Notes: generated from the letters alone by a model not told the origin. A DNA stretch of 64,000 nt from Candidatus Pollutiaquabacter aromativorans (GCA_049177215.1 CP185379.1:1192150-1256149), one strand, 5' to 3'; shown: positions 28,255-45,118, counted from the first letter of the stretch. Program-made: numbers and translations.

Positions 28255-31200
28255 ATGTACCTACGAATCCTATTCATCCTGACGGGCCTGTTGCTGACAC
28301 AGGTTGTAGTATCAGGACAAAATCAGGCTAATTCCGAATCCGAGCTGCGTAAGCGGGCAGATAAGTTATTTCAGGATCAGGAATATCTGACCGCTGTCGG
28401 GCCTTATTCCCAGTTGCTCAGCCTGCAGCCGAATGATGCCACCCTGAATTATCGTTATGGCACGGCCCTGTTGCTTTCCGGAAAAGACAAACGGAACGCG
28501 GTAAGCTACCTGGAAAAAGCCATGAACGACCCGGCACAACCGATGGAGGGCTGGGTGTACCTCGGACGATCTTACATGTTTCTGGGAAAGTACGAGGATG
28601 CTAAAAGTTGTTTCAACCGGTTTAATACCCGGGCAACGGACGCGCAGCGCAAGAAGTTCAATTCGGAAGAATGGCTTCGTTCCGCGGGTGCCGCATCGGA
28701 GTTATCCCGTCAACGCAGGATGGTCAGCGTGACCGCGCAGAAGGAAGTTTTACGTTCTGCAGCTTACTCTCAAATCGACTATACGAATGCTGCCGGTAGG
28801 ATCCTGCCGGTGCCGGAAAAGTTCCAGACGACAGCCGACAAAGACAAACAGGCTGCTCCGGTCATGTATCTGTCGCGCGACGGACAGACGATCTACTACG
28901 CCAGCTATGGGAAAGGGAGTGTGGGAGGAAAGGACCTCTATCTCATTCGTAAGATGACGAATGGGGAATGGGCACAACCCGAACACCTGGGGTCCGTGCT
29001 AAACTCCGTCTACAACGAGGATTATCCGTTCCTTGACCGGGATGGCAAAACGCTCTACTTCGCGAGCCAGGGTCACAATTCGATCGGTGGCTACGATATT
29101 TTCAAATCCGTTTTCAATTTCAATACCGGCCAATGGTCGGCACCTGAAAACCTGGGAATACCGCTGAACACTCCGGACGATGATCTGCTGTATGTGCCCG
29201 GCTCCGATGGTGTAACCGCCGTATACACCACCGCCGACTTTACAGATAACACGCACACCGAAATCCGTACCATCCACCTCGATGACCAGCGGAATCCTTT
29301 CGCTACCATTCGCGGAACGTATTATTCGATTGACCAGCCCATGCGTCGCGATGCTCGGGTCATTGTGCTGCGTGCAGCCGATCGTTCTGTTGTGACAACT
29401 GTTCGAACCGATCCGAGGACCGGAGATTATGAATTGGTTTTGCCGGGCGGTGAGTCGTACTGGCTTGTCATCGATGGCGGCGGCTATGTTCCGCATACCG
29501 AATCATTCGACCTGCCTGCAGGTCTCGAAAAAGCCGCGCTCCGACAGGAAGTGCGCATGAACCGCAACAAGCAGGAAGAATTGATGACGGTCACCAATTT
29601 CTTCACGCCCATGCCATCTGCCATTGGTGCTGATGTGATTGCAGTGAACGACCGTCCTAGTTCTACCGAAACATCTGCTACAACTCCGTCATCGGAGACA
29701 GTTCAAATCTCGGTCGGAAACGAAACGCTGATTGTTAGCAAACCGGTCAGTCAGCCGGTAACATCCCCTGAACAAGCCGGTGAAGTTCCGGTAACAGCCG
29801 ACCAGGCTGCAGATGAGGACACCTCACTCGCGGACAACTACAATCCGCTGTTGGACCGGGAGATGACCCAGGACGAAATCCGTCAACGCCAGGAAGAACA
29901 GCTTCGCTCGGAAGAAGTGGTCGCGGATGAAAAGATCCCCGCAGAGCAACTCCATGTGCCCGTCGATGAACACGAACTTGCACGCAGCGCCGTGGAGGAT
30001 GGTGTCGCCCTGCAACGCGAAGCGGACAGTCTGCAGGATCGCAGCCGGGAATTGTATGCGTCGGCTGCAAACCGCGAAGAGGAAGCAGTACGCTTACTCG
30101 AAGAAGCGCAGTCCATCAAAGAGGATACCGTTCGCGCAGCCAACCTCTACCTGCAATCGGATGATATGAAGCAGATGGCCCTTGCGGAAAAACAGCAGGC
30201 CAGGGAATTGGACGGGCTTGCAACCGAGCGTCGCGCTGAAGCAAAGCAGGCATTGACCGACGCGAAAGCCTTGATCAGTTCGACGAATACGAAAGACAAG
30301 GAACTTTCCGCTTCAGTTGACAGAGCCTTGGCCGGAACCAGTGAAAAGGCATCCGTTACTGCATCAAGTCCTAGTGCGGCTCAAGGAGTCACATCTCCCT
30401 CGTTGGAACCCATGGCCGAACAGGCTGTTGAAGTTCGTACGGAAGGTGTCTCTTCAACGGCCAACCCGACCAGTCAAACAACTCCGGCTGCCGGACAGCC
30501 GCAAGCTGCGGATGAAGAACAGTTGGCGACAACTTCTCCAAATCAGCAAGAGCAAAATCAAACTGCGGCGACAACTTCCAGGGTATCTCCCGATTCAAAC
30601 GATTCCGGCGTCGTCGCCGTCCAGCAAAATGTCTCAGAAGAATCTCAACCAACTGCGGACTTTAAACGTGGACATGCGGCTGAATCGTCCGGAAAGGAGA
30701 CTGGGAAACCGGTTGTCGGTACGAATCCGGAGGGCTCGTCTGTTTCAGAGAAAAATACTGCTGATGTCCTTGCTGCCGGAACCAACCCTGCAATTACTGC
30801 AAGCGATGAGCATGCAGCAAACGACAAGCAATCGGTTATTGAACCCGAAACAACCGTAAATGCAACCACTAAGCCTGAAGGATTACCGGAACAAAAGGCA
30901 CAGCAATCGGCTGATGAGCGGACTGTAGCGATCCATCAAGCGTCCGAAGAACAACCAAAGGCCGAACCGAATGCAATGGAGAACAGGCCCAAAGATCAGG
31001 CAACTTCGTCGGGAGAGCCTGTTGTCATCGCCGGGCAGCCCACAAGGGAATCAGAGAGCCGTCAACAACCGACCGCCAATCAGCCTTCCGCTGGAAAATC
31101 AAAAGATGATAAAGTTGCAGCGACAACCGGGACGTCGCAACCGACATCTTCTACTGCAGCTAACGCAACGACCATTCGTTCCACGGATGATGCTGCGCAA

Positions 31201-34200
31201 TCGGTACCGGTGGCTGTCAACGCAGACGGTGCTCCGGTTTCCCCCCAGACTACGCAAAACACAGACAGGACCAGAGCTACGACCGGAACTCAAACCGGCA
31301 GCACTGATCGGAGCACCTCAGCAACCCGACTGACGATGGTTCCGGCTATGGAAGGTGTAAGCGAAGAAACGAGGCTGGCTTATCAGAACTACAAGCAACG
31401 GATGGAATTCTCCTCGCGGCTCGACGAACGTTCAAAAGAACTGCAGACGCAAGTGGCAACGATGAAGAACTCTCCGGAACGGGATAGCCTCATCCAGTTG
31501 TCCAACTCCATGAGTATGGAATCAATCCGACAGTGGCAATCGGCTCAACAACAATTACAACTTGCCAAGGCGGATGATCCGGAGATCCAAACCAAAGCGG
31601 AAACTGCCATCGCAACGGCAAAGGCTGCAGAACCTGCAGCGGAGCCCGTCGTAACGAGTCAGGAGCTTGCCACTGTTGCAAACCCGGTGCGACGCGACGC
31701 TGTGCCGACCGGCGAGTCAGCTGCCAGGACCGGCGTATCCGGAAACCAGTCGGCGAATACGAATCGTGCTGATCGTTCGGAGCAACCGGCGGGAACACAA
31801 CCTGCCACTTCCGGACAAGTTAGCGCGATAAAAACCGATGTCGAGGAAACGAATCAACTTTCGGTTACACCAACGACCCCGTCGGTTGAACCGGCTTCCG
31901 GGGAAGCGCGGAATGATGGACAGCTTGCTTCCAACGTGTCCGGAAATCAAGCTGCTGACCGTGTTAGCAACGATGGCGAAGGCCAGCGATTAGAAGTTTC
32001 AGCAAATAACCCGAACGAGCCCCGACCAGTGTCGGGTGGAGATGTCGCTCCAGCAACATCCACTGGCGAAATAAGCCGGAACGAATCAAGGCAGGGTGCG
32101 ATCTCGCCTTCGGCTGAACAAGGTACTACCACTGCCCGGCAGGATCGGAGCGATGCTACGCCTGCGGCTGGACGAGGCGATGAGCAGGCGGTTGCCACGA
32201 AACCATCAACGATTCCATCCGGCGCAGAGCGTGCGGGACAAGTCGTTGCCAACCCGGATCAGACACCAGGTGAAAGACCGGCTTCTGCTGAGCGATCGAA
32301 CCCTGTTTCGAAAGAAGCTGCGCCTACTGTATCCGGTCAGGAAACCGTCACCAACCAATCCGAAAGGCAGGAATCCGTTCGTTCGTCGGAAACCCAGGAG
32401 TCCGGAGGTCAACGGAATTCCAATGCGGTTCAAACTGCAACAGACCGGACAAGGATCGCAGACAATACGGAGCCGGCAGTTACTCCAGCCAATGCTGTTT
32501 CCAACACTCCTACGAATACAACCACTCAAGCGGCAGACAACCGAAATACCGTCAATGAACAGCAGCCGGGCGCGATGCAGCAACCTGCTCAACCCGCAAC
32601 CTCCCAGGTTGAACTGGTGTACGATACGGCTTCCGTTCGGAGCAAATTGCAATCCAATGAAGATGTTCCGGTCGCACAACTGGACTCCTCCCACAAGGAT
32701 TTTCCGCGTTACCTCAAATTGCGCCAGGAAGTGGGAGAGAAGCAGGACGAAACCATCCGCTTGTTTTCTTCGGCTATCGAGTTGAACAAGAAAGCATCCC
32801 AAGAGAAAGAAGAACAAGTCGATCTGATGCAAAAAGCGGAAGCTACCGCCGATGCCAACGAAAAAGCCAAACTGCTCCGCAGCGCTGAAAAGCGTAAACA
32901 CGATTCGGAAGAACACGAAGCGGAAGCCGGCAAACTGATGGCGCAGGCGCAAAAGCTTTCCGACGAGATCTGGGAAAACAACCAGTCGCTCGAAGCGCTC
33001 AGCCTGGCGATCCGAAAGTCGGGTCCTGCACGTACTTCTCCTGCCACTACGCCTGGAACTTCCGGAACAACGACTACCGACATTCGACCGGCAACTATTC
33101 CGGAAATGGATGAGACGGTACGCGCTGAATCATCTGTTTCAATACAGCAGACCGGCAATGATCGTGCGCCGGTCAAAGCAGGCCCGCTTACCGTTCCGGG
33201 CATCGAACGCATGGTCGTGCGCAGCGACAAACCCGCGTACACCGATACTGCACCGATACCGGTGGATCAACCCCTGCCCGAAGGACTCGTCTTCAAAGTC
33301 CAGATCGGCGCTTTCCGCAAACCGATTCCGAACGAAGCCTTTGGCGGTTTGTCGCCCGTCAGCGGCGAAAACACCCGTCCGGGTTGGATCCGTTACTGTG
33401 TCGGTCTCTTCCGCACCTTCGAGCCGGCCAACCTGGTGAAGAAAGCCATGCGCGGACAGGGTTTCAAAGACGCGTTCGTCGTCGCTTACTTTAACGGCAA
33501 ACGGATCTCACTTGGCGAAGCCTATGCCATGCTGAACCAGGCGGGCAGTGACTCCCGTGCGACCTATGCTTCCGTATCCCGTGAAGAATTACAACGCCTG
33601 AAAGCACTCAACATCGTTCCGCAGCGTACCAGCGCACCGGATCGTGACGAACAGGAATTCTTCGGAGGAACTACTTCGGCATCGGCTGACGGTTTCGGTA
33701 CCGGTACGGCTTATGCGGTGCAGGTGGGTGTGTATCGATCTTCCATTCCGCCTGCCGTACTGGGCAGTCTGCAACCTTTACAGCAGGAAGCTTTGCAGCG
33801 CGGTCTTTTCCGCTATACCACCGGACGATACCAGGTTTACGCTTCCGCCGATTCCATGCGCCGAGTCGCTGTGGCCGCCGGTATCCCGGATGCCTTTGTT
33901 GTCGCTTACCGCGATGGTCGTCGTGTCAGCCTGAGCAACGCGCGGCGCAGCGAGACCGGTACGTCAGGATCTACGGTGGTGCGTCCACAACCTGCAGCTT
34001 CAACACCCGCCGCGCAACCGGCAGTTGAAACCGGAGCCATCACGTTCCGGGTACAGGTTGGGGCATTCCGTCAGCAGGTTCCTTTCCAGGTGGTCGATGC
34101 ACTCCTGAAAGTATCGGATCGTGGCGTAGAACGCGAGCAGGATCCGCGCGGACTGCAGGTCTTCTTCGCCGGACGTTTCTCGGACTACGAATCCGCCCGG

Positions 34201-34311
34201 AAGCTGAAGGAAGAAGTGGTGGGCCGCGGTGTGCCGGATGCTTTCGTGGTAGCCTTCAGCGGCACGAAACGGATCCCCCTGGCCGAGGCCTTGCGGCAGG
34301 TAGGTCAATAA
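28255..34311 (+). CDS. giant (2018 aa) secreted protein: TPR, then PD40/TolB-like propeller, then about 1300 aa of low-complexity/coiled-coil, then three C-terminal SPOR (septal peptidoglycan-binding) domains
   Basis: Signal peptide. TPR (YRYGTALLLSGKDKRNAVSYLEKA...). PD40 repeats (YLSRDGQTIYYAS..., LDRDGKTLYFAS...GGYDIFKS). Long A/T/S/Q/E/P-rich and coiled-coil stretches. Three SPOR units (FKVQIGAFR...GFKDAFVVAY, YAVQVGVYR...IPDAFVVAY, FRVQVGAFR...VPDAFVVAF). The ORFs on the opposite strand and in other frames inside it look spurious. Confidence 0.8.
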   Translation: MYLRILFILTGLLLTQVVVSGQNQANSESELRKRADKLFQDQEYLTAVGPYSQLLSLQPNDATLNYRYGTALLLSGKDKRNAVSYLEKAMNDPAQPMEGWVYLGRSYMFLGKYEDAKSCFNRFNTRATDAQRKKFNSEEWLRSAGAASELSRQRRMVSVTAQKEVLRSAAYSQIDYTNAAGRILPVPEKFQTTADKDKQAAPVMYLSRDGQTIYYASYGKGSVGGKDLYLIRKMTNGEWAQPEHLGSVLNSVYNEDYPFLDRDGKTLYFASQGHNSIGGYDIFKSVFNFNTGQWSAPENLGIPLNTPDDDLLYVPGSDGVTAVYTTADFTDNTHTEIRTIHLDDQRNPFATIRGTYYSIDQPMRRDARVIVLRAADRSVVTTVRTDPRTGDYELVLPGGESYWLVIDGGGYVPHTESFDLPAGLEKAALRQEVRMNRNKQEELMTVTNFFTPMPSAIGADVIAVNDRPSSTETSATTPSSETVQISVGNETLIVSKPVSQPVTSPEQAGEVPVTADQAADEDTSLADNYNPLLDREMTQDEIRQRQEEQLRSEEVVADEKIPAEQLHVPVDEHELARSAVEDGVALQREADSLQDRSRELYASAANREEEAVRLLEEAQSIKEDTVRAANLYLQSDDMKQMALAEKQQARELDGLATERRAEAKQALTDAKALISSTNTKDKELSASVDRALAGTSEKASVTASSPSAAQGVTSPSLEPMAEQAVEVRTEGVSSTANPTSQTTPAAGQPQAADEEQLATTSPNQQEQNQTAATTSRVSPDSNDSGVVAVQQNVSEESQPTADFKRGHAAESSGKETGKPVVGTNPEGSSVSEKNTADVLAAGTNPAITASDEHAANDKQSVIEPETTVNATTKPEGLPEQKAQQSADERTVAIHQASEEQPKAEPNAMENRPKDQATSSGEPVVIAGQPTRESESRQQPTANQPSAGKSKDDKVAATTGTSQPTSSTAANATTIRSTDDAAQSVPVAVNADGAPVSPQTTQNTDRTRATTGTQTGSTDRSTSATRLTMVPAMEGVSEETRLAYQNYKQRMEFSSRLDERSKELQTQVATMKNSPERDSLIQLSNSMSMESIRQWQSAQQQLQLAKADDPEIQTKAETAIATAKAAEPAAEPVVTSQELATVANPVRRDAVPTGESAARTGVSGNQSANTNRADRSEQPAGTQPATSGQVSAIKTDVEETNQLSVTPTTPSVEPASGEARNDGQLASNVSGNQAADRVSNDGEGQRLEVSANNPNEPRPVSGGDVAPATSTGEISRNESRQGAISPSAEQGTTTARQDRSDATPAAGRGDEQAVATKPSTIPSGAERAGQVVANPDQTPGERPASAERSNPVSKEAAPTVSGQETVTNQSERQESVRSSETQESGGQRNSNAVQTATDRTRIADNTEPAVTPANAVSNTPTNTTTQAADNRNTVNEQQPGAMQQPAQPATSQVELVYDTASVRSKLQSNEDVPVAQLDSSHKDFPRYLKLRQEVGEKQDETIRLFSSAIELNKKASQEKEEQVDLMQKAEATADANEKAKLLRSAEKRKHDSEEHEAEAGKLMAQAQKLSDEIWENNQSLEALSLAIRKSGPARTSPATTPGTSGTTTTDIRPATIPEMDETVRAESSVSIQQTGNDRAPVKAGPLTVPGIERMVVRSDKPAYTDTAPIPVDQPLPEGLVFKVQIGAFRKPIPNEAFGGLSPVSGENTRPGWIRYCVGLFRTFEPANLVKKAMRGQGFKDAFVVAYFNGKRISLGEAYAMLNQAGSDSRATYASVSREELQRLKALNIVPQRTSAPDRDEQEFFGGTTSASADGFGTGTAYAVQVGVYRSSIPPAVLGSLQPLQQEALQRGLFRYTTGRYQVYASADSMRRVAVAAGIPDAFVVAYRDGRRVSLSNARRSETGTSGSTVVRPQPAASTPAAQPAVETGAITFRVQVGAFRQQVPFQVVDALLKVSDRGVEREQDPRGLQVFFAGRFSDYESARKLKEEVVGRGVPDAFVVAFSGTKRIPLAEALRQVGQ

Positions 34312-35585: not shown

Positions 35586-35659
35586 GGACCCGTAGCTCAA
35601 CTGGATAGAGCATCTGACTACGGATCAGAAGGTTAGGGGTTCGACTCCCTTCGGGTCCG
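35586..35659 (+). tRNA. tRNA-Arg (anticodon ACG)
   Basis: Acceptor ggacccg/cgggtcc, D-arm tagctcaactggatagagca, anticodon stem tctga/tcaga with loop ctACGga, T-arm ggggttcgactccct. Confidence 0.85.
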
Positions 35660-36164
35660 CTACTGACACAATAGACCCTTGATTATCAAGATGATAGTCG
35701 AGGGTTTTTTGTTGGTGGACGCCTGTGTGGGCACTCTTTTGCTTTGCTTGCCTTTTCCAAGAACCTCTCGAGGGCGGATTTGCTTGTGCACAGCTCGTTA
35801 AGCTTTTTCAAAGTACGAACGCTTACAAACTTCTTCTAAAATATTGGGGTGTTAAGAATGCCTGGGTCGGTAGTATTCCTTAAATGAAACTTTCATCTGG
35901 ATAATTTATATTAGCAAGGCAATCTTTATGGTCGCGCCCTTTTGCTTGACAGCAAAGGTTCCTACTCAGATGCGAAACCATTTAACGGCATTCGCAATTT
36001 TCGCCATTGTGTCATATTACAATGGAATCTAAATGTTGTTATGATATAGCAGCTGGATTGTTTTAAAAACAGTTTCCGAAGAAGGCTTCTGATAATATAA
36101 CTCGAACTTTCTGTTACCCCTGGATGATTAATTAGGTATTTCCCAACTTCTAAATAAACTAGCT

Positions 36165-37748
36165 ATGCGAGTCTTGCTCTTTCAATGGTTTTTACTAATT
36201 ACAATACAGATTATTAATGCCACTTCTTCGATTGCTCAGCAGCAACAGGGGATAGAGTGGGCCGTGTCTTATGGAGGAGCTAGCATTGACGTAGGAAACT
36301 CTATTCAACTTACCAGCGATGGTGGTTATGTTGCAATTGGAAAGAGTCGTTCAAGTGATGGTGACATCACTGTAAATCACGGCAGGGAAGATTACTGGGT
36401 TGTAAAGATCTCGAGCGATGGGAGTATTCAATGGCAAAAGTCTTTTGGCGGATCATCAGAGGATAATGGAAGATTCGTCCAGGGCACCTCAGATGGAGGA
36501 TACATTTTGATTGGATTTACAATGTCTAATGATGGCGACGTAATTGGAAATCATGGTGGTTATGATTGTTGGGTTGTAAAGCTGGATAGCATAGGGGATA
36601 TTGAATGGCAGAGAGCTTTAGGAGGATCGGGCATGGATGCCGGTGTATCAATTATTCAAACTTCCGATGGAGGTTATGCCATGATTTCTGTGTCAGATTC
36701 TAATGATGGAGATGTATACGGGAACAATGGCCAAACAGACTTTTGGGTTGTGAAACTTTCAGAATTAGGTAACATTGAATGGCAAAAATCTTTAGGGGGG
36801 AGTAGTTCTGAAACGGCATCCTCTATTCAACAAACTGCTGATGGGGGATACATTGTATCGGGTCAGAGTAGTTCCAATGATGGCGATGTTACTGGAAACC
36901 ACGGGGACTCTGATTTTTGGATAGTTAAATTGTCGAGTTTCGGAGATATACAATGGCAGAATTCGTACGGAGGGGCAGCTTATGATCATGGTCTGTCGAT
37001 TCAAGAAACTGCAGATGGAGGGTATATAACATGTGGTTTTGTTGAATCAAATAATGGTAACGTGACTTTTAATCACGGAAGTCGTGATGTTTGGGTACTT
37101 AAGTTATCTAATAATGGTGATTTGGAATGGGAAAAGTCATTTGGAGGCACTGGGGATGATTGGGGGCATGAAATTCAAATCACTTCTGATGGCGGATATG
37201 TGATTCTCGGACACAGTAATTCTAATGATGGAGATGTATTTAATATTCATGGATCAAGGGATTATTGGGCGATAAAGTTGTCTAATTTTGGTGTATTGGA
37301 GTGGCAAAAGACCTTAGGTGGTTCAGAATCTGACATAGGGCATTCTATTCGGCAAACCCTTGACGGTGGGTTTATCCTAATTGGTGAAAGTCAATCAAAT
37401 GATGGCGATGTGACTGGAAATCATGGTGCTTCCGACTATTGGATTGTAAAGTTAAATGCAACAATTGGGTTGTCCGAGTTTTCTGACTTTGAATGGACAA
37501 TTGTTTCCCCAAATCCAGTAACTAGTAGATTAACCATTAAAGTATCACTTACAAATTCTGAAGATCTTCAAGTTTATATACGGGACTTGCTTGGTCATGT
37601 AGTTTTAGAACCAATAAAATTGAATAATGTCAGCGGATTGGTTGAACAATCAATATCAACAACTATGCTTTCCGACGGAATGTACTTGCTTGATATTGTT
37701 GGGCTAAAATGGAGAAAAACTAAGCGAATAATCATAGTTCAAAGATGA
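36165..37748 (+). CDS. T9SS cargo protein with eight tandem ~48-aa SBBP-type beta-propeller repeats and a type-A C-terminal sorting domain
   Basis: Signal peptide. Repeat (I/L)EWQKS.GGS..D.G.SI.QTSDGGY...G.S.SNDGDV.GNHG..D.WVVKL occurs 8 times. C-terminal SPNPVTSRLTIKV...GMYLLDIVGLKWRKTKRIIIVQR. Confidence 0.7.
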   Translation: MRVLLFQWFLLITIQIINATSSIAQQQQGIEWAVSYGGASIDVGNSIQLTSDGGYVAIGKSRSSDGDITVNHGREDYWVVKISSDGSIQWQKSFGGSSEDNGRFVQGTSDGGYILIGFTMSNDGDVIGNHGGYDCWVVKLDSIGDIEWQRALGGSGMDAGVSIIQTSDGGYAMISVSDSNDGDVYGNNGQTDFWVVKLSELGNIEWQKSLGGSSSETASSIQQTADGGYIVSGQSSSNDGDVTGNHGDSDFWIVKLSSFGDIQWQNSYGGAAYDHGLSIQETADGGYITCGFVESNNGNVTFNHGSRDVWVLKLSNNGDLEWEKSFGGTGDDWGHEIQITSDGGYVILGHSNSNDGDVFNIHGSRDYWAIKLSNFGVLEWQKTLGGSESDIGHSIRQTLDGGFILIGESQSNDGDVTGNHGASDYWIVKLNATIGLSEFSDFEWTIVSPNPVTSRLTIKVSLTNSEDLQVYIRDLLGHVVLEPIKLNNVSGLVEQSISTTMLSDGMYLLDIVGLKWRKTKRIIIVQR

Positions 37749-37798: not shown

Positions 37799-39250
37799 AT
37801 GTTCGAACAAACCTTCAAAAACATCGACGACATCCTCCACAAAGACGCCGGTTGCGGTAGCGAACTGGACTATGTGGAACAGACTTCATGGGTGTTGTTT
37901 CTAAAATACCTGGATGACCTGGAGAAAGACCGCGCCACGGCTGCTGAACTGACGGGTAAGACGTACACGCCCATCATCGACAAAAAGTACCAGTGGTCGG
38001 TCTGGGCGGCGCCCAAGGGTAAGGATGGCAAACTGGACCACCACAAGGCGATGACCGGTGACGACCTGACCGACTTCGTGAACGGCAAGCTGTTTCCCTA
38101 CCTGAAAAAGTTCAAGACGGATGCGGACAGCGCGGATACCATCGAATACAAGATTGGCGAAATCTTCAGCGAACTGAAAAACCGCCTGCAAAGCGGATAT
38201 AACCTGCGGGAGGTCATCAACCTCATTGACGAGTTGCGTTTCCGTACCCACGCAGAGAAGCACGAAATGAGCCACCTCTACGAGGAGAAGATCAAGAACA
38301 TGGGCAACGCCGGGCGCAACGGCGGCGAGTACTACACGCCGCGCCCGCTCATCACCACCATCGTGAAGGTGATTGACCCGAAGATTGGCGAGAAGATCTA
38401 CGACGGCGCCTGCGGCTCGGCAGGCTTCCTGTGCGAAGCTTTTGCCTACCTCAACAAGAAAGGGCTGTCCAGCAAGGATACAGTGACTCTCCAGAAGAAG
38501 ACCTTCTATGGCAAGGAAAAGAAATCGCTGGCCTACATCATCGGCATCATGAACATGATCCTGCACGGTGTGGAAGCCCCCAACATCATACACACCAATA
38601 CACTGGCCGAAAACCTCGCGGACATACAGGAAAAAGACCGCTACGATGTGGTGCTTGCCAATCCGCCTTTTGGTGGAAAGGAGCGTGCCGAAGTGCAACA
38701 AAACTTCCCGATTAAAACAGGCGAAACCGCTTCGCTCTTTTTACAGCACTTCATTAAAATATTGAAAGCAGGTGGCAAGGCAGGTGTGGTTATTAAAAAC
38801 ACTTTTTTGAGTAATACCGATAACGCCTCTGTCGCCATCCGAAAGACCTTGTTGGAGAGTTGTAACCTTCATACGGTGCTGGATTTGCCAGGTGGCACGT
38901 TTACAGGAGCTGGTGTAAAAACGGTAGTGCTGTTTTTTGAAAAAGGTAAGCCCACAAAGAAGGTATGGTATTATCAGCTGAACCTTGACCGTAATTTAGG
39001 TAAGACCAACCCGCTCAATGAAAAAGACTTGGCGGACTTCGTGCAGCTCCAAAAATCCTTCAAGGATAGCGAGAACTCTTGGACGATAAACGTAAAGGAC
39101 ATCGACCAGAGCACGTTTGACTTGAGCGTGAAGAATCCGAATAAAAAGCAGGAAGTTGCCTTGCGTCAACCGCAAGAAATTTTAGAGGAGATGAAGGCGC
39201 TGGATGAAGAGAGTGCGGAAATCTTTAATTCAATATTGGAGCTGTTATGA
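37799..39250 (+). CDS. hsdM: Type I restriction-modification system, DNA methyltransferase subunit M
   Basis: HsdM N-terminal domain (WVLFLKYLDDLEK), SAM motif I (DGACGSAGFL) and catalytic NPPFGG (VLANPPFGGKE). 483 aa. Stop overlaps the hsdS start (ATGA). Confidence 0.9.
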   Translation: MFEQTFKNIDDILHKDAGCGSELDYVEQTSWVLFLKYLDDLEKDRATAAELTGKTYTPIIDKKYQWSVWAAPKGKDGKLDHHKAMTGDDLTDFVNGKLFPYLKKFKTDADSADTIEYKIGEIFSELKNRLQSGYNLREVINLIDELRFRTHAEKHEMSHLYEEKIKNMGNAGRNGGEYYTPRPLITTIVKVIDPKIGEKIYDGACGSAGFLCEAFAYLNKKGLSSKDTVTLQKKTFYGKEKKSLAYIIGIMNMILHGVEAPNIIHTNTLAENLADIQEKDRYDVVLANPPFGGKERAEVQQNFPIKTGETASLFLQHFIKILKAGGKAGVVIKNTFLSNTDNASVAIRKTLLESCNLHTVLDLPGGTFTGAGVKTVVLFFEKGKPTKKVWYYQLNLDRNLGKTNPLNEKDLADFVQLQKSFKDSENSWTINVKDIDQSTFDLSVKNPNKKQEVALRQPQEILEEMKALDEESAEIFNSILELL

Positions 39251-39732
39251 AGCAGGGTTGGGAAATAAAGAAGTTGGGAGAGATTGTTGATATTGTTAAT
39301 GGAAGGAATCAATCTTCAGTGCTCTCTGAAAATGGACCATATCCTATTTACGGAAGTGCTGGTAATTTGATGGGCTATTCAACGGAGTATTTGTGTGATA
39401 AAGGCACCACTATAATCGGAAGAAAGGGGAATATCTCTACCCCAATCTTCATTGATGAAAGATTTTGGAACGTAGATACTGCCTTTGGATTATTCCCCAA
39501 AAATGGAAGCATCCCCAAGTTTATTTATTATTTATGTCTTACCATTGATTTCAAAAGTCGAAACAGGGGTACAACTATTCCGAGTTTAGTCAAATCAGAC
39601 TTATTGACCATTGATGTCCCATTTGTTAAGTCCCTCCCCGAACAACAACGCATTGTTTCCATATTAGACGAGTGCTTTGCCGCCATAGCCAAGGCAAAAG
39701 CCAATGCCGAAGAAGAACCTCAAAAACGCTAA
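39247..39732 (+). CDS. hsdS: Type I R-M specificity subunit S, N-terminal target-recognition-domain half (ends in the central conserved region)
   Basis: MKQGWEIKKLGEIVDIVNG... is a typical HsdS start. It ends ...ILDECFAAIAKAKANAEEEPQKR* inside the central conserved spacer. Confidence 0.75.
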   Translation: MKQGWEIKKLGEIVDIVNGRNQSSVLSENGPYPIYGSAGNLMGYSTEYLCDKGTTIIGRKGNISTPIFIDERFWNVDTAFGLFPKNGSIPKFIYYLCLTIDFKSRNRGTTIPSLVKSDLLTIDVPFVKSLPEQQRIVSILDECFAAIAKAKANAEEEPQKR

Positions 39733-40348
39733 GGAACTTTTTGAGAGTTATTTGCAGGGGGTGTTTGAGAATGGGGATTGGGACACGAAAACCATTGAAC
39801 TGGTATGTGATGAAATATTTGCAGGTGGTGATGCGCCCCAAAACAATTTTTCATTGGAGTCCAATAAAAAACATAATATTCCTATATACGCAAATGCTGT
39901 AAAAGATAGAGGTCTGTACGGCTATACTGACTTTGCAAGAGTTAACAAGCCTTGTGTGACAATAGCAGCAAGGGGGAGTGGTACAGGGCACACGGAATTA
40001 AGGAATGAACCATTTTTGCCTATTGTAAGGCTCATTGTATGTATTCCAAACTGCAAAATAATCACAGCCGAATTCCTCAAATACACGATAGATAATTTAG
40101 TGATTCAGCGCAGCGGTAGTGCGATTCCACAACTAACTGTTCCGATGATAAAGGACTATATTATACCAGTTCCACTTATTGAAGAGCAAAAACAGATTAT
40201 TGAAAAGGCAGAAGCACTTAAAGAACAAAAAGCAAGACTCGAAAATGTATATCAAAAGAAGTTGGAAGACTTGGAGGAGTTGAAGAAGGCCATCCTTCAA
40301 AAGGCATTTGCTGGGGAGTTGAAAACAGGAAAACCGGTTGCGGCATGA
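39704..40348 (+). CDS. hsdS: Type I R-M specificity subunit S, C-terminal target-recognition-domain half (different frame, overlaps previous ORF by 29 nt)
   Basis: Continues the conserved central/C-terminal regions (NLKNAKELFESYLQ ... EEQKQIIEKAEALKEQKARLENVYQKKLEDLEELKKAILQKAF). Together the two ORFs make a normal two-TRD HsdS. Confidence 0.7.
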   Translation: MPKKNLKNAKELFESYLQGVFENGDWDTKTIELVCDEIFAGGDAPQNNFSLESNKKHNIPIYANAVKDRGLYGYTDFARVNKPCVTIAARGSGTGHTELRNEPFLPIVRLIVCIPNCKIITAEFLKYTIDNLVIQRSGSAIPQLTVPMIKDYIIPVPLIEEQKQIIEKAEALKEQKARLENVYQKKLEDLEELKKAILQKAFAGELKTGKPVAA

Positions 40349-41235
40349 GTTGGAACGAAAAAAGCATGTTAAATGAGCCATCCGGAGAATGGGGTGGTCC
40401 CTGGACTGAAAAAAAGCTTGAAGCTTTTTCAAAATATGTGTGGTCTTACCTAACCATTATGAAGAAGTTCCCTTTTTGGAAAACCATCTACTTTGATGGC
40501 TTTGCGGGAAGCGGAACAAGGGATAAGCGGGCGAATGCTCATTTGATGCAACAACTAAAAATCACAGACGAAGAAGAAGAAACTTATAAAGGTGCTGCCG
40601 AAAGGGTTTTAGGTTTGCAAGAATTGGGGTTTGACTTTTACTATTTTATTGACAAAAACGACACTTCGCTGAATAAATTGAAAACAAAACTGGGTGATAG
40701 ATTTAAAGATAAAACGATTGTTTACCGGTCAGGAGATGCGAACGTTCAAATAGCCGAGCTTGCAAAAGCCTTGCGAACCAAAGATTACGCAGCATTGGTT
40801 TTTCTTGACCCTTTCGGCATGCAAATAGATTGGAATTCCATAGAAGAATTAAAAGATACACGTTCTGATGTATGGATTTTAGTTCCAACGGGCGTTATTG
40901 TAAATCGTCTATTGGACAGAGCAGGAAAATTGGAGTTTAGCGATAAACTCCAATCATTTTTCGGCTTGCCAATTGAAGAAATCAAAACACATTTCTACGA
41001 AGAAAAAAAAGTGCAGACACTTTTCGGAGTAGAAGAAATCATCACAAAGGTTTCTCGACCTATTGAGAAAATTTCAAGTTTGTATGCCGAACGAATGAAA
41101 ACTATCTGGAAGCACGTTACGGATGAACCACTAGTATTGAAGAACCGAAACGGCTCACCTATATTTCATTTCGTATTTGCATCAAATAATCAGAATGCAA
41201 AAAAGATTGCTAAACAAATTATTCATAACATTTAA
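40345..41235 (+). CDS. TcmP-like (three-Cys-motif partner protein) family protein; unknown function
   Basis: 296 aa. N-terminal W..KKLEAF.KYV..Y, glycine-rich YFDGFAGSG and VFLDPFG motifs as remembered for the TcmP family (TIGR04474). Start overlaps the hsdS stop by 4 nt and it is followed 3 nt later by a Gp37/Gp68 gene. Family assignment is from memory, not a search. Confidence 0.55.
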   Translation: MSWNEKSMLNEPSGEWGGPWTEKKLEAFSKYVWSYLTIMKKFPFWKTIYFDGFAGSGTRDKRANAHLMQQLKITDEEEETYKGAAERVLGLQELGFDFYYFIDKNDTSLNKLKTKLGDRFKDKTIVYRSGDANVQIAELAKALRTKDYAALVFLDPFGMQIDWNSIEELKDTRSDVWILVPTGVIVNRLLDRAGKLEFSDKLQSFFGLPIEEIKTHFYEEKKVQTLFGVEEIITKVSRPIEKISSLYAERMKTIWKHVTDEPLVLKNRNGSPIFHFVFASNNQNAKKIAKQIIHNI

Positions 41236-41238
41236 CCT

Positions 41239-41964
41239 ATGGCACAATCAAGTATAGAATGGACTGAAATGACTTGGAATCCAACAACGGGTTGCGATAA
41301 AATTTCGGCAGGTTGCAAATTCTGTTATGCGGAAGTAATGGCAAGGCGATTAAAAGCAATGGGCGTTGAAAAATATGCCAATGGCTTTGAGTTGGCTATT
41401 CACGAAGATGAATTGCAAACACCTTACACTTGGAAAAAATCGAAAATGGTATTTGTAAATTCAATGAGCGACTTATTTCATAAAGACGTGCCCGTTGAAT
41501 TTATTCAAAAGGTATTCAGAGTAATGAAAGAAAATCCGCAACACGTTTTTCAAATTTTGACCAAACGGGCTGATTTGCTTTTATATTATGATAAAGAAGG
41601 ATTGTTGGAATGGGCGCACAACATCTGGATGGGTGTTTCGGTAGAAAGCGAAAAAGTGATGAACCGGATTGACCTTTTGCGTCAAACCAATGCAAGAGTA
41701 AAATTTTTAAGTTGCGAGCCGTTAATAAGCCCTCTGCCAAATTTGAATTTAAAAGGCATTGATTGGGTAATAGTAGGCGGTGAAAGCGGAAGAACGCCAA
41801 GACCCATGAAAAAGGAATGGGTAATGGAAATTAAAGAACAATGTAGGAAAAAAGATGTAGCGTTTTTCTTTAAGCAATGGGGCGGAACGAACAAAAAGAA
41901 AACAGGCAATCTGCTTAACGGCAAAAAATATTTAGAAATGCCAGAAATAGTTGAATCGAAATGA
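41239..41964 (+). CDS. phage protein Gp37/Gp68 family (DUF5131), three-Cys-motif radical-SAM-like protein
   Basis: IEWTEMTWNPTTGCDKISAGCKFCYAE carries the family-defining N-terminal Cys triad (C-x6-C-x2-C). 241 aa. Stop overlaps the hsdR start (ATGA). Confidence 0.75.
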   Translation: MAQSSIEWTEMTWNPTTGCDKISAGCKFCYAEVMARRLKAMGVEKYANGFELAIHEDELQTPYTWKKSKMVFVNSMSDLFHKDVPVEFIQKVFRVMKENPQHVFQILTKRADLLLYYDKEGLLEWAHNIWMGVSVESEKVMNRIDLLRQTNARVKFLSCEPLISPLPNLNLKGIDWVIVGGESGRTPRPMKKEWVMEIKEQCRKKDVAFFFKQWGGTNKKKTGNLLNGKKYLEMPEIVESK

Positions 41965-44312
41965 ACGAGGCAGAAACACGCGCTGAACTAATCGACCCCA
42001 AGCTCAAGGCTTGCGGCTGGGGCGTGGTGGAAGGCTCCAAAATCCTGCGAGAGTATAAAATCACCGCGGGGAGGATTCAGGCTGGCGGAAGAGGCAAGCG
42101 TGATATTGCAGATTATGTGCTGGTCTATAAAGGCATCAAGCTGGCGGTAGTGGAAGCGAAAAGCGCTTCGGTGGAAGTGGGTGAGGGTGTGATGCAAGCC
42201 AAGAAGTACGCGGAGAAACTGCAAACCGGCACCACGTACAGCACCAACGGGAAGGAAATCTACCAGATTTGCATGGAGACCGGCGCTGAGGGCTTGGTGC
42301 CGGAGTTCCTCAGCCCCGACCAGCTATGGAACAAGACTTTTTCGCCGGCCGGTGCCGAACCGATAGCTACCGCCCAATGGCGCGAGCGATTCACCAATGT
42401 TCCTTTTGAAGACAAAGGAGGCAGCTGGCAGCTTCGCTACTATCAGGAAATCGCCGTGCAACGCGCCATTGAGGCCATTGCACAAAACAAAAACCGAATC
42501 CTGCTCACCCTTGCCACGGGAACAGGCAAAACGGCTATCGCCTTCCAAATCGCCTGGAAGCTATACCAAACCCGCTGGAACCTGAGACGGGATGGCAGCC
42601 GCAGACCGCGCATCCTGTTCCTGGCCGACCGCAACATCCTCGCCGATCAGGCCTACAACGCCTTTTCGGCGTTTCCGGAAGATGCGCTGGTGCGCATTAA
42701 GCCGAATGAGATTAGGAAAAAGGGCAAAGTGCCGACCAATGGCAGCGTCTTCTTCACCATCTTCCAGACCTTCATGAGCGGGCAGGATGCAGCGGGTAAG
42801 CCCACCCCATATTTCGGAGAGTACCCACCGGACTACTTCGATTTCATCATCATTGACGAGTGCCACCGCGGCGGAGCAAACGATGAAAGCAACTGGCGCG
42901 GGATTCTGGAGTATTTCAGTCCGGCGGTACAGTTGGGTCTGACCGCAACCCCCAAGCGACAGGACAACGTGGATACGTATGCTTACTTCGGCGAACCGGT
43001 GTACGTGTATTCGCTCAAAGAGGGCATCAACGACGGCTTCCTCACCCCGTTCAAAGTAAAACGCATCCAGACGACCCTCGACGACTACCGCTATACGTCC
43101 GACGATACCGTGGTAGAGGGCGAAATCGAGGAGGGTAAATTGTACGAGGAGAAGGACTTCAACCGCACCATTGAGATCGTGGAACGGGAGGCCAAGCGGG
43201 TGAATGTGTTTCTTTCAGAGGCAAACCAACACGAAAAAGCAATAATCTTCTGTGCTAACCAAGGGCACGCCGCCTTGATACGGGATTTAGTAAATCAGCA
43301 CGCTAAGCACAAAGACCCCTTTTACTGCGTACGAGTGACTGCCAATGACGGGGAGGAAGGGGAGCGCCTGCTGCGGGAGTTTCAGGACAATGAAAAGACG
43401 TTGCCGACGATTCTGACCACCTCGCAAAAACTCTCCACCGGGGTTGATGCACGGAACATTCGAAACATCGTCCTGCTGCGCCCCGTCAACTCGATGATCG
43501 AGTTCAAGCAAATCGTCGGCCGGGGTACCCGCCTGTTCGATGGGAAGGAGTTTTTCACCATCTACGATTTTGTCGATGCCTACCGCCACTTTTCCGATCC
43601 CGAATGGGATGGGGAACCGGAGGGCGAAGTGGACAAGGTCGTCAGCGATCACGGTCAAGAGAAATACGATCCAAGAGCTCCCCGTGAGCCTGAGGAAGCA
43701 GGAGATCCCAAGGAACCTCGGCGGAAAGTAAAGGTTAAGCTACGAGACGGTAAAGCGCGGGAGATACAGCACATGGTGTCCACCTCGTTTTGGAGTGCGG
43801 ACGGAAGGCCGATCTCTGCACAAGAATTCCTGAGCAATCTGTTCGGAGAACTGCCGAAACTTTTCAAAGACGAAGAGGAACTGCGAAAGCTGTGGAGCAA
43901 TCCATTGACCCGCCGTACGCTGCTTGAAAAGCTGGAAGAGGCCGGTTTCCCCAAGGCAGACCTGCTCACCTTGCAGCAGTTGGTCGATATGGAAAAGAGC
44001 GACCTGTATGATGTGTTGGAATATGTTTTCAATGGCGACTATATCGCCATGACAAGAGAAGCCAGAGCCAAAGCAGCCGAAGCGACCATTTTTGCCCTGC
44101 TCAACGACAAGCAAAAGGAGTTCATTGCATTTGTGCTCAGTAAATACATTGAAACCGGCGTGGATGAGCTTGACCAGGATAAGCTGCCTATCCTGTTGAC
44201 GAACAAATATCAGTCACTGGAAGACGCTAAAGCGGTCTTGGGGGATGTGGCGAATATCAGTCGGTTGTTTGTGGAGTTTCAGGAGCATCTTTATAAGCAG
44301 CGGGTTGCGTAA
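41961..44312 (+). CDS. hsdR: Type I restriction enzyme R subunit (EcoEI-like, 783 aa)
   Basis: HsdR_N PD-(D/E)xK domain (DIADYVLVYKGIKLAVVEAK), SF2 helicase motifs (LATGTGKT, DECHRG, later motifs) and an EcoEI-R-type C-terminal domain. Confidence 0.9.
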   Translation: MNEAETRAELIDPKLKACGWGVVEGSKILREYKITAGRIQAGGRGKRDIADYVLVYKGIKLAVVEAKSASVEVGEGVMQAKKYAEKLQTGTTYSTNGKEIYQICMETGAEGLVPEFLSPDQLWNKTFSPAGAEPIATAQWRERFTNVPFEDKGGSWQLRYYQEIAVQRAIEAIAQNKNRILLTLATGTGKTAIAFQIAWKLYQTRWNLRRDGSRRPRILFLADRNILADQAYNAFSAFPEDALVRIKPNEIRKKGKVPTNGSVFFTIFQTFMSGQDAAGKPTPYFGEYPPDYFDFIIIDECHRGGANDESNWRGILEYFSPAVQLGLTATPKRQDNVDTYAYFGEPVYVYSLKEGINDGFLTPFKVKRIQTTLDDYRYTSDDTVVEGEIEEGKLYEEKDFNRTIEIVEREAKRVNVFLSEANQHEKAIIFCANQGHAALIRDLVNQHAKHKDPFYCVRVTANDGEEGERLLREFQDNEKTLPTILTTSQKLSTGVDARNIRNIVLLRPVNSMIEFKQIVGRGTRLFDGKEFFTIYDFVDAYRHFSDPEWDGEPEGEVDKVVSDHGQEKYDPRAPREPEEAGDPKEPRRKVKVKLRDGKAREIQHMVSTSFWSADGRPISAQEFLSNLFGELPKLFKDEEELRKLWSNPLTRRTLLEKLEEAGFPKADLLTLQQLVDMEKSDLYDVLEYVFNGDYIAMTREARAKAAEATIFALLNDKQKEFIAFVLSKYIETGVDELDQDKLPILLTNKYQSLEDAKAVLGDVANISRLFVEFQEHLYKQRVA

Positions 44313-44362: not shown

Positions 44363-45118
44363 ATGAAAAATCTTACAGTAAGTAGTTTCGACGAAATAAT
44401 TAATATATTGACTAACGATAAATATGGTTGTGGCCATGTTGTTTATCGTGGAGTTTCTGATTCTAAGAAACATGACTTAAGACCGTCTGTTGGAAGGATA
44501 GATCCCTCATTGTTAAAGGGCAAAGATCTTCAAGAGTTGGAGCGTGAGATGCTAACCCGTTTTAAATTGAGAGCAAACTTTGAAATTAGTCCGCAACCTA
44601 AGGATGATTGGGAGTGGTTGGCTTTAGCTCAACATCACGGCCTGCCAACAAGACTTCTTGACTGGACATTTAGTCCATTAATTGCAATCTACTTTGCATG
44701 TAAACCCATTCTCAATGACAATGGTTTATTTGATAGTTCTAACAGTGACGCAAGAGCTGTTTACGCACTACATACATGTTCGTACCTAGACACCAGTTGC
44801 TTAGATCCATTTTCAGTTAGTGAATGCTGCTTATTTTACCCCCCTCACATCACAAAGCGTATATCTGGTCAGTTTGGTCTATTCTCTGTTCAGCCAGACC
44901 CCATGACAGCATTCGATTCTCAGTTAGAGGAGTCGGATGAAAACTGGGTAGATAAGATTGAAATTCCACTGGACCTAGCTATTGAAGCTCAAAAGAAGCT
45001 GTTTCTTTTGGGAATAAGGCATGAAACTATTTTTCCAGATTTGGAAGGCTACACATATGACCTAAGAGTAAAGTTCAATATTGCTTCATGTCATACTTTG
45101 AAAAATCTTTGCTTGTAG
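44363..45118 (+). CDS. FRG-domain protein
   Basis: VVYRGVSDSKKHDLRPSVGR and WEWLALAQHHGLPTRLLDWTFSPLIAIYFA match the FRG-domain signature. 251 aa. Confidence 0.65.
   Translation: MKNLTVSSFDEIINILTNDKYGCGHVVYRGVSDSKKHDLRPSVGRIDPSLLKGKDLQELEREMLTRFKLRANFEISPQPKDDWEWLALAQHHGLPTRLLDWTFSPLIAIYFACKPILNDNGLFDSSNSDARAVYALHTCSYLDTSCLDPFSVSECCLFYPPHITKRISGQFGLFSVQPDPMTAFDSQLEESDENWVDKIEIPLDLAIEAQKKLFLLGIRHETIFPDLEGYTYDLRVKFNIASCHTLKNLCL

Follow-up and report, generated by a model that had tools for sequence, protein, structure and literature searches.

In the present work, we examine a Type I restriction-modification (R-M) operon at positions 37799-44312 of a stretch of 64,000 nucleotides (nt), one strand, from Candidatus Pollutiaquabacter aromativorans (GCA_049177215.1 CP185379.1:1192150-1256149), the whole of which is called the window below. 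In addition to hsdM, hsdS and hsdR, the operon holds one gene for a TcmP protein and one for a DUF5131 (Gp37/Gp68) protein. We will show that this operon, of Type IB by its sequence, has captured a mobile cassette, catalogued as PDC-M41, between hsdS and hsdR, and that it lies on an island of low guanine-cytosine (GC) content by a tRNA-Arg gene. As for the role of the cassette, sequence comparisons, structural models and analogy with known systems lead us to propose, with moderate confidence, that the two proteins act on a nucleic-acid base and constitute an independent second defence layer that is co-expressed with the R-M genes.

The operon and its two inserted genes

The five genes are co-oriented on the + strand in the order hsdM-hsdS-tcmP-DUF5131-hsdR, as seen from the listing of open reading frames (ORFs) and from direct reading of the junctions. 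The features are as follows, with lengths in amino acids (aa):

37799..39250, + strand: hsdM, Type I N6-adenine DNA methyltransferase subunit, 483 aa (PF02384, 7.8e-65; PF12161, 4.2e-10; PADLOC MTase_I, 1.7e-164; DGACGSAGF and NPPFG in the translation)
39247..39732, + strand: N-terminal fragment of hsdS, 161 aa, with the first target-recognition domain and the first half of the central conserved helix (PF01420, 1.6e-23)
39704..40348, + strand: C-terminal fragment of hsdS, 214 aa, with the second half of the central helix, the second target-recognition domain and the distal conserved region (PF01420, 8.7e-17)
39706..39716, + strand: approximate site of a +1 frameshift in the central conserved region of hsdS (gccGAAGAAGAACctc), where homologues keep one frame
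40345..41235, + strand: tcmP, three-Cys-motif partner protein, 296 aa, PADLOC PDC-M41A (TIGR04474, 142.8 bits, cut-off 53; PDC-M41A, 1.3e-109)
41239..41964, + strand: DUF5131/Gp37-Gp68 three-Cys protein, 241 aa, radical-SAM-like, PDC-M41B/PDC-M30B (PF07505, 324.9 bits, cut-off 28.9)
41961..44312, + strand: hsdR, restriction subunit of Type IB (EcoAI/EcoEI family), 783 aa (NF046051, 797.1 bits, cut-off 550; ResIII, EcoEI_R_C, HSDR_N)

Start and stop codons overlap as ATGA at the hsdM/hsdS (39247-39250), hsdS/tcmP (40345-40348) and DUF5131/hsdR (41961-41964) junctions, and a spacer of 3 nt (41236-41238) separates tcmP from the DUF5131 gene. A first-pass annotation of this DNA had already given the gene order, the three overlaps and the gap, and all of these are reproduced here. 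It had also proposed that the whole array is translationally coupled. The overlaps and the spacer are real, but the coupling fails as written because hsdS is split into two frames (see below). Scans for promoters and terminators over 37.5-45.4 kilobases (kb) gave counts no higher than in shuffled sequence, and no operon map was obtained from them; the Bacteroidota -7 motif TANNTTTG was not enriched in the scan around the operon.

The assignment to Type IB (EcoAI/EcoEI family) is made from sequence. HsdR scores above the cut-off of NF046051 (EcoAI/FtnUII family) and consists of an N-terminal nuclease (HSDR_N), an SF2 helicase core and an EcoEI_R_C tail, with the catalytic motifs D...EAK, GTGKT and DECH kept in the translation. 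HsdM has the N6_Mtase and HsdM_N domains and keeps the catalytic NPPFG. Since the catalytic motifs of both subunits are retained, there is no hint that the inserted genes replace the R-M chemistry.

The specificity gene is a different case. The first-pass annotation had treated hsdS (39247-40348) as one gene, while we find two overlapping ORFs in different frames, both matching Methylase_S (PF01420), so that the two target-recognition domains are present on separate ORFs and not on a single intact HsdS. In four intact HsdS homologues, the sequence ...AIAKAKANAEQNLKNAKELFESYLQGVFENG... is uninterrupted and the central segment ANAEQNLKNAKELFES lies in one frame. To match them, the window sequence gccGAAGAAGAACctcaaaaacgcTAA would have to change frame by +1 at about 39706-39716; the 161-aa ORF stops early compared to these homologues, and the 214-aa ORF aligns to their C-terminal halves. 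Beside the split hsdS, the genes hsdM, tcmP, DUF5131 and hsdR are all intact. The split could mean that hsdS is a pseudogene and the R-M system is decaying, that the subunit is made as two halves, or that the assembly is wrong at this point. Because of the frameshift, the R-M part may be inactive or altered here, unless the extra base is an assembly error.

We now turn to the inserted genes. The assignment of the first one to the TcmP family, made already in the first-pass annotation, is confirmed by profile search (TIGR04474 at 142.8 bits against a cut-off of 53) and by the PF07505 partner located 3 nt downstream. The family is large, with 2,079 clusters at 50% identity (E up to 1e-3). A Pfam scan of the window protein assigned no family to it, and PHROGs holds no family for TcmP. 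A comparison of 62 homologues (31-60% identity) shows D51, A54 and G55 (DxFAGxG), F96, D155 and P156 (DPFG), P181 and G207 to be invariant. The glycine-rich FDGFAGSG, found in the translation as IYFDGFAGSG, had been likened to motif I of enzymes that bind S-adenosylmethionine (SAM), and both this conservation and the structural comparison agree with that suggestion. An AlphaFold model was used for the comparison, with a predicted local distance difference test score (pLDDT) of 69.6. In a Foldseek search of the PDB, all 50 listed matches depend on SAM and have the class I methyltransferase fold, most of them being methyltransferases (best E 2.6e-4; template-modelling score, TM, 0.3-0.4). As modelled, with moderate reliability, TcmP has a Rossmann-like fold with motif I and motif IV, that is, the fold of a class I SAM-dependent methyltransferase.

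Regarding the type of methyltransferase, the only PDB entry matched by sequence is the RsmD-like 2fhp, which is marginal (E 0.056). The recurrent weak Pfam matches among the 62 homologues are to Cons_hypoth95/RsmD (7), RlmJ (4) and Trm1 (2), with no other family recurring. RsmD, RlmJ and Trm1 are methyltransferases that act on purine exocyclic amines, and these sequence matches give weak hints that TcmP could be of the purine N-methyltransferase type. The class I fold and motif I are common to TcmP and these three families, but the matches are far below the family cut-offs, and TcmP has features of its own, namely a conserved N-terminal GGxWTxxKL element and a distinct C-terminal region. We take the D-P-aromatic motif IV (DPFG) to be comparable to that of RsmD, RlmJ and Trm1; a literature search on DPFG in Trm1 gave no confirmation. 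One metagenomic protein of 437 aa, P0154, looks like a chimera, in which the N-terminal part of a DNA N6/N4 adenine methyltransferase (PF01555, 1e-15) is followed by the C-terminal half of TcmP (TIGR04474, 75 bits). This could be a real fusion or an artefact of gene calling.

The second inserted gene matches PF07505 over profile positions 1-243 of 243 (324.9 bits against 28.9), which bears out its earlier assignment to the Gp37/Gp68 (DUF5131) family. The protein is highly conserved, the top 120 database matches being at least 82% identical, and it has the residues C19, C26 and C29 (CX6CX2C), C202 and G181-E-S-G184 invariant in diverse homologues. The Cys triad near the N-terminus, GCDKISAGCKFCYA, which the first-pass annotation had singled out as radical-SAM-like, is present in the translation, and its spacing differs from the canonical CX3CX2C of radical SAM enzymes. 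The radical SAM superfamily includes variant cluster-motif spacings. A weak match to TIGR04471 (6.5e-26) is below the cut-off, the PHROGs entry, phrog_2045, has no function listed there, and a sequence search of the PDB with the protein matched nothing.

In the predicted structure of the DUF5131 protein (pLDDT 77.2), a partial TIM-barrel core is found that is common to solved radical SAM enzymes, and the nearest fold is that of spore photoproduct lyase (SPL). RadicalSAM.org places DUF5131 in the radical-SAM subgroup Megacluster-5-2, beside the MJ0683-like proteins (5-1) and SPL (5-3) (PMC9477430). The fold and this placement support the radical-SAM-like reading of the protein, and we consider DUF5131 to be a small predicted enzyme of radical-SAM type. 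It differs from SPL and the SplB-like PA0069/Rv2578c proteins, with which it has an identity of only 9%: at 241 aa as against 340 aa it is far shorter, it carries CX6CX2C in place of CX3CX2C, and DUF5131, unlike SPL, has an obligatory methyltransferase-like partner and no known repair role.

The cassette in other loci

In a pattern scan that took one genome for each species, relatives of this TcmP subfamily turned up in 454 genomes. The best 80 of the 454 loci, with 52-91% TcmP identity, were analysed by tblastn and ORF clustering; nearly all come from Bacteroidota and allied metagenome-assembled genomes. The alignment of 62 TcmP sequences (A2) was too diverse for locus scanning and a closer one (A3) was used, so the survey is confined to relatives in this identity range.

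In 77 of the 80 loci, DUF5131 lies immediately downstream of TcmP, mostly with a gap of -8 to +6 nt; the pairing of the two genes is thus obligate. Type I genes are found nearby in half of the loci (40/80). At 43 loci, 3 kb or more of sequence is available on each side; of these, 23 have the pair embedded, with Type I genes on both sides and on the same strand, 3 have Type I genes on one side, and 17 have none. Type I genes account for well below 1% of a genome and, by this rough estimate, finding about half of the loci embedded is far above chance. The link of the pair to R-M and defence neighbourhoods, anticipated in the first-pass annotation, is borne out by these 23 embedded copies and by the other defence genes found beside some of the others.

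Several operon architectures occur. In that of the window, M-S-[pair]-R of EcoAI type, the pair is found also in L001, L004, L006-L008, L011, L015, L046 and L056. A second architecture, R(~930 aa)-[pair]-S-[variable genes]-M, is seen in about 27 loci and belongs to another Type I family, with 25-31% identity to the window proteins. In L025, L030 and L033 a third type of HsdM lies upstream of the pair, and in L079 the pair stands upstream of M-YhcG-S-R. A specific functional tie to the hsdS-hsdR junction was considered and rejected, as the pair is located between hsdM and hsdS or upstream of hsdM in L030, L033 and L079. The same operons host other genes as well. In the second architecture, the interval from S to M carries Schlafen/AlbA_2-HATPase_c_4, DUF4062, GmrSD_N-AlbA_2, a SEC-C protein, a deaminase-like protein or IS200, and in the architecture of the window RhuM and YhcG-type genes are found in the M-to-S interval. 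Such embedded extra genes match the pattern of defence embedded in defence described by Payne et al. (10.1101/2024.01.29.577857).

The pair has in fact been catalogued in that study, in which genes lying within BREX, DISARM and Type I R-M systems were collected ("guilt by embedding") and 145 candidates were curated (bioRxiv 10.1101/2024.01.29.577857). Two cassettes are relevant here, CAS_00149 (FAM_02405>>FAM_00989, listed with 75), which is PDC-M41, and CAS_00125 (FAM_02577>>FAM_00989, listed with 104), which is PDC-M30; one family, FAM_00989, is present in both, so one DUF5131 family goes with two TcmP families. Both PDC-M41 models match adjacent genes in the window, PDC-M41A the TcmP gene (1.3e-109) and PDC-M41B the DUF5131 gene (2.9e-127), and the latter additionally matches PDC-M30B. 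The window pair shows no difference in kind from PDC-M41 and is another instance of it. The first-pass annotation had presented the arrangement as an uncharacterised module. It is not unrecognised, being already catalogued as PDC-M41/PDC-M30, but a literature search found no functional study. PDC-M41 and PDC-M30 are candidates only, neither being discussed or tested in the main text and neither having a proposed mechanism; PDC-M41 is outside the tested set and goes unmentioned in that text (10.1101/2024.01.29.577857). For DUF5131, TcmP, COG4422 and PDC-M41/M30, the search returned only catalogue or annotation mentions; among these, a TcmP gene adjoins hna in Sinorhizobium meliloti, and PDC-M30 features in defence inventories.

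The partner of TcmP varies between loci. TcmPs that are 70-91% identical to that of the window have DUF5131 partners of two lineages, one 82-95% identical to the window protein (L004-L007, L012, L013, L016-L018) and one only 50-54% identical (L008, L010, L011, L014, L015, L056); both lineages are seen with TcmPs of 74-80% identity to the window protein. Closely related TcmPs with two DUF5131 lineages indicate that partners have been exchanged by recombination within the cassette. A further case is plasmid pC052_C of Nostoc sp. C052 (L088, 6823-8885), where the divergently oriented partner of a true TcmP (219 bits) is, in place of DUF5131, a canonical Radical_SAM protein (PF04055) of SplB-like PA0069/Rv2578c type, and this pair adjoins BREX-1 genes. 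Together with the two lineages, it shows that the partner is interchangeable within the SPL-related radical SAM proteins. Decayed copies were also encountered: tcmP is frameshifted in L005 (916-2526) and L046 (6719-7568), and the DUF5131 gene in L012 (8505-9238); in L005, only about 170 nt of the 5' end of hsdR remain after the pair.

Outside Type I operons, the pair is found beside an HKD-Snf2 helicase and a Type IIG/DrmMI-like methyltransferase (DISARM-like, L042), DUF499 and a DUF1156 methyltransferase (Hma-like, L059), DdmD-like and PD-T4-1-like proteins (L071), a Mokosh-like helicase (L078), a Type IIG/ISP enzyme (L037) and a TIR SpbK-like protein (L066). On Acetobacter and Leisingera plasmids the order is reversed, DUF5131 preceding TcmP, and the Leisingera pair is next to abortive infection (Abi) genes. 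On a metagenome contig from JGI, M-S-TcmP-DUF5131-R-FRG is part of an integrative element that adjoins mnmE and also carries HTH_17, VapE and a tyrosine integrase. Such copies beside other defence systems, in housekeeping surroundings and on plasmids imply that the cassette is autonomous and mobile, with a strong but non-exclusive preference for defence loci.

In phages the distribution is different for the two proteins. Of 50,697 phage records, 178 contain DUF5131, chiefly those of Mycobacterium, Gordonia and Burkholderia phages. A direct phage search with the window TcmP found two Synechococcus phages only, where DUF5131 is a convergent neighbour, and the 2.9 million viral contigs of IMG/VR contain only four distant loci of this TcmP subfamily. 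In Gordonia phage Jablanski, gp43, annotated as "methyltransferase", is a divergent TcmP (hhalign 97.5%; TIGR04474 117 bits, cut-off 53). The DUF5131 gene gp42 faces it tail to tail (L084, 3983-5852), and the two belong to the lysogeny module, flanked by an integrase with a RelBE pair on one side and by the immunity repressor on the other. TChen and phi1026b have longer DUF5131 proteins and no evident TcmP.

Possible roles of the pair

The proposal that we favour can be formulated as follows. TcmP and DUF5131 would act jointly on a nucleic-acid base, probably in DNA, with TcmP binding or methylating the base and DUF5131 performing radical chemistry on the same base. The cassette would provide a second, self-contained line of defence. 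It would share its transcript with the R-M genes, like prrC in EcoprrI, and the pair would not be a component of the Type I enzyme. Action on a base is suggested by the combination of an SPL-like radical SAM partner and a purine-N-methyltransferase-like TcmP. A mechanistic analogy, and no more than that, can be drawn with RlmN and Cfr, since methyl transfer and radical chemistry on a nucleic-acid purine would be common to both cases. These class A radical-SAM methylases perform an SN2 methyl transfer and a radical step in one polypeptide with the canonical cluster motif, whereas two proteins would be involved here. The second-layer reading is favoured because the pair occurs without R-M genes, because the same operons host unrelated cassettes, and because the HsdM and HsdR motifs are kept. 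Of the two options raised in the first-pass annotation, a co-regulated second defence layer fits thus much better than an addition to, or a replacement of, the R-M chemistry.

It is important to point out that a number of observations weigh against this proposal. The structural models are only moderate (pLDDT 69.6 for TcmP and 77.2 for DUF5131), the Foldseek search of the PDB with the DUF5131 model gave no significant match, and the Cys spacing of DUF5131 is CX6CX2C and not the canonical one. No nuclease, sensor or membrane effector can be recognised in the cassette, and it is therefore not evident how a modification would stop a phage. Several copies are located in housekeeping surroundings, next to isoleucyl-tRNA synthetase (IleRS; L054 and L065), PurL (L013), DinB (L016) and a TonB receptor (L029). 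DUF5131 without a detectable TcmP is common in phages (the 178 records mentioned above), which would also agree with a function in modifying or repairing phage DNA. Furthermore, the 80 loci are the closest relatives only and lack phylogenetic independence; as few as three or four capture events may underlie them. In the literature, no demonstrated anti-phage activity, Fe-S cluster, SAM cleavage or substrate was found for the pair.

Other explanations have to be considered. In the EcoprrI locus, hsdM-hsdS-prrC-hsdR, the anticodon nuclease guard prrC is co-transcribed with the Type I genes, and the pair in the window resembles it in that an unrelated putative defence cassette occupies the hsdS-to-hsdR slot. 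By this likeness, the pair could be a latent toxin that is silenced by the Type I complex and, once freed by a phage anti-restriction protein, attacks tRNA, rRNA or DNA of host or phage through radical or methyl chemistry and aborts the infection. The occupied slot, the tight ATGA junctions, the 23 embedded loci out of 43 and the fact that the families nearest to TcmP are RNA-base methyltransferases are all in line with such a guard, as is the remark by Payne et al. that PrrC is found almost only within Type I R-M systems (10.1101/2024.01.29.577857). However, about 40% of the loci (17/43) have no Type I genes nearby and the plasmid copies stand alone, where a masked toxin should not persist, and the pair remains intact beside a frameshifted hsdS, a hazardous state if the R-M complex served as the antidote. 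The pair has no homology to PrrC, RloC or any nuclease. PrrC consists of an ABC-ATPase and a nuclease, whereas the pair comprises two SAM-type enzymes with no sequence or domain relation to it, and Pfam, NCBIfam and PADLOC scans found no ABC-ATPase or anticodon-nuclease domain in the pair. Only the operon position is thus common to the two, and while PrrC is almost always in Type I R-M, the pair is about half the time without Type I genes. We consider a guard of this kind unlikely. A closer functional integration, in which the pair adds a second self-mark at or near the sites specified by HsdS or modifies the restriction reaction, would account for the co-oriented overlapping genes in one operon, for the location between hsdS and hsdR in both main architectures, and for the fact that each architecture has its own TcmP identity range, suggesting a long association. 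Against such an accessory stand the frequent occurrence of the pair where Type I genes are absent, its presence beside unrelated systems, its placement between hsdM and hsdS or upstream of hsdM (L030, L033, L079), the swapping of DUF5131 lineages among closely related TcmPs, and the canonical and complete state of HsdM and HsdR. This makes it quite improbable in our view.

The presence of DUF5131 in the 178 phage records, in some among early genes near DNA methyltransferases, raises the question of whether the pair is cargo and not host defence, its modification shielding the carrier element, plasmid or phage from restriction in new hosts. Copies on conjugative plasmids and on an integrative element agree with this, and so does the resemblance of both proteins to modification enzymes, with no effector present. 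We nevertheless regard it as improbable: this TcmP subfamily is nearly absent from the 2.9 million viral contigs (the four distant loci), the embedding in host R-M, BREX-adjacent or Abi-adjacent loci is a signature of defence cargo, and the gene in Jablanski and phi1026b is situated in the lysogeny/integrase region, a site of prophage-expressed genes. It is also conceivable that DUF5131 is an SPL-like DNA-repair lyase assisted by TcmP, and that the two genes reached the R-M operons as hitch-hikers at a hot spot of recombination, without any defence role. Its nearest fold and radical-SAM sequence cluster are indeed those of SPL and the SplB-like PA0069/Rv2578c proteins, and some copies are beside DinB or housekeeping genes. 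A repair enzyme is not expected to be patchy, horizontally mobile and defence-embedded in roughly half of the loci, nor does this explanation account for the invariant methyltransferase-type partner, and the low-GC island is a typical site of accessory genes. We find it very unlikely.

Returning to the proposal of a base-directed second defence layer, the pair is widespread and strongly tied to defence loci, yet without a nuclease, sensor or pore; if it is a defence, it must work by SAM and radical chemistry on nucleic acids. A rather speculative extension, which we put forward only tentatively, is that TcmP and the SPL-like radical SAM enzyme make an undescribed base modification, for example by radical C-alkylation or cross-linking from an N-methylated purine. 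If true, such a modification would represent a new antiviral or epigenetic principle, usable alone or plugged into modification-discriminating systems (Type I, Type IIG, DISARM-like, Hma-like, BREX). Viperins use radical-SAM chemistry to yield antiviral nucleotides and not to modify nucleic acids, and the mode of action of the pair, if it is a defence, would differ from theirs. The arrangement itself is not new, but the cassette is a tractable candidate for new radical-SAM chemistry in phage defence. The window offers a clear and compact example, with DxFAGxG and DPFG in TcmP, CX6CX2C, C202 and the SPL-like fold in DUF5131, and the interchangeable partners as handles.

The surrounding island

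The operon is part of a low-GC island at about 35.8-47.2 kb, with about 40% GC compared to about 54% in the surroundings, which begins just after a tRNA-Arg(ACG) gene and contains two surface proteins sorted by the type IX secretion system (T9SS), the R-M operon and an FRG gene. Two features adjoin those listed above:

35586..35660, + strand: tRNA-Arg(ACG), at the left edge of the low-GC island (ARAGORN; GC profile)
44363..45118, + strand: FRG-domain gene, 251 aa, PADLOC candidate PDC-S15 (PF08867, 4.6e-26; PDC-S15, 4.9e-67)

In a search for attachment (att) sites, the 3' end of tRNA-Arg was not found a second time, nor were there convincing direct repeats at the flanks, and there is no integrase among the ORFs of the island. 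The GC content at third codon positions (GC3) forms a mosaic, with 0.67 in hsdM and 0.66 in hsdR, as opposed to 0.38 in hsdS, 0.35 in tcmP, 0.36 in DUF5131 and 0.33 in the FRG gene, and the related loci do not have this contrast. A recent recombinational swap-in of hsdS-tcmP-DUF5131 was considered as well and found to be unsupported, the nucleotide identity to relatives being 69-84% throughout with no sharp step.

The FRG gene starts 50 nt downstream of hsdR, and an FRG gene follows hsdR likewise in L001; it may be a further embedded or attached candidate cassette. Upstream of the operon, 36165-37748 encodes a 527-aa protein with a T9SS C-terminal sorting domain and units of about 58 aa, and the corresponding DNA repeats have a period of 174 nt, in at least 6 copies of 60-70% identity. 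Farther to the left, at 28255-34311, there is an ORF of 2018 aa with a long low-complexity middle part rich in Ala, Thr, Ser, Gln and Glu, and the AT skew at 30-33 kb is strong (0.26-0.30).

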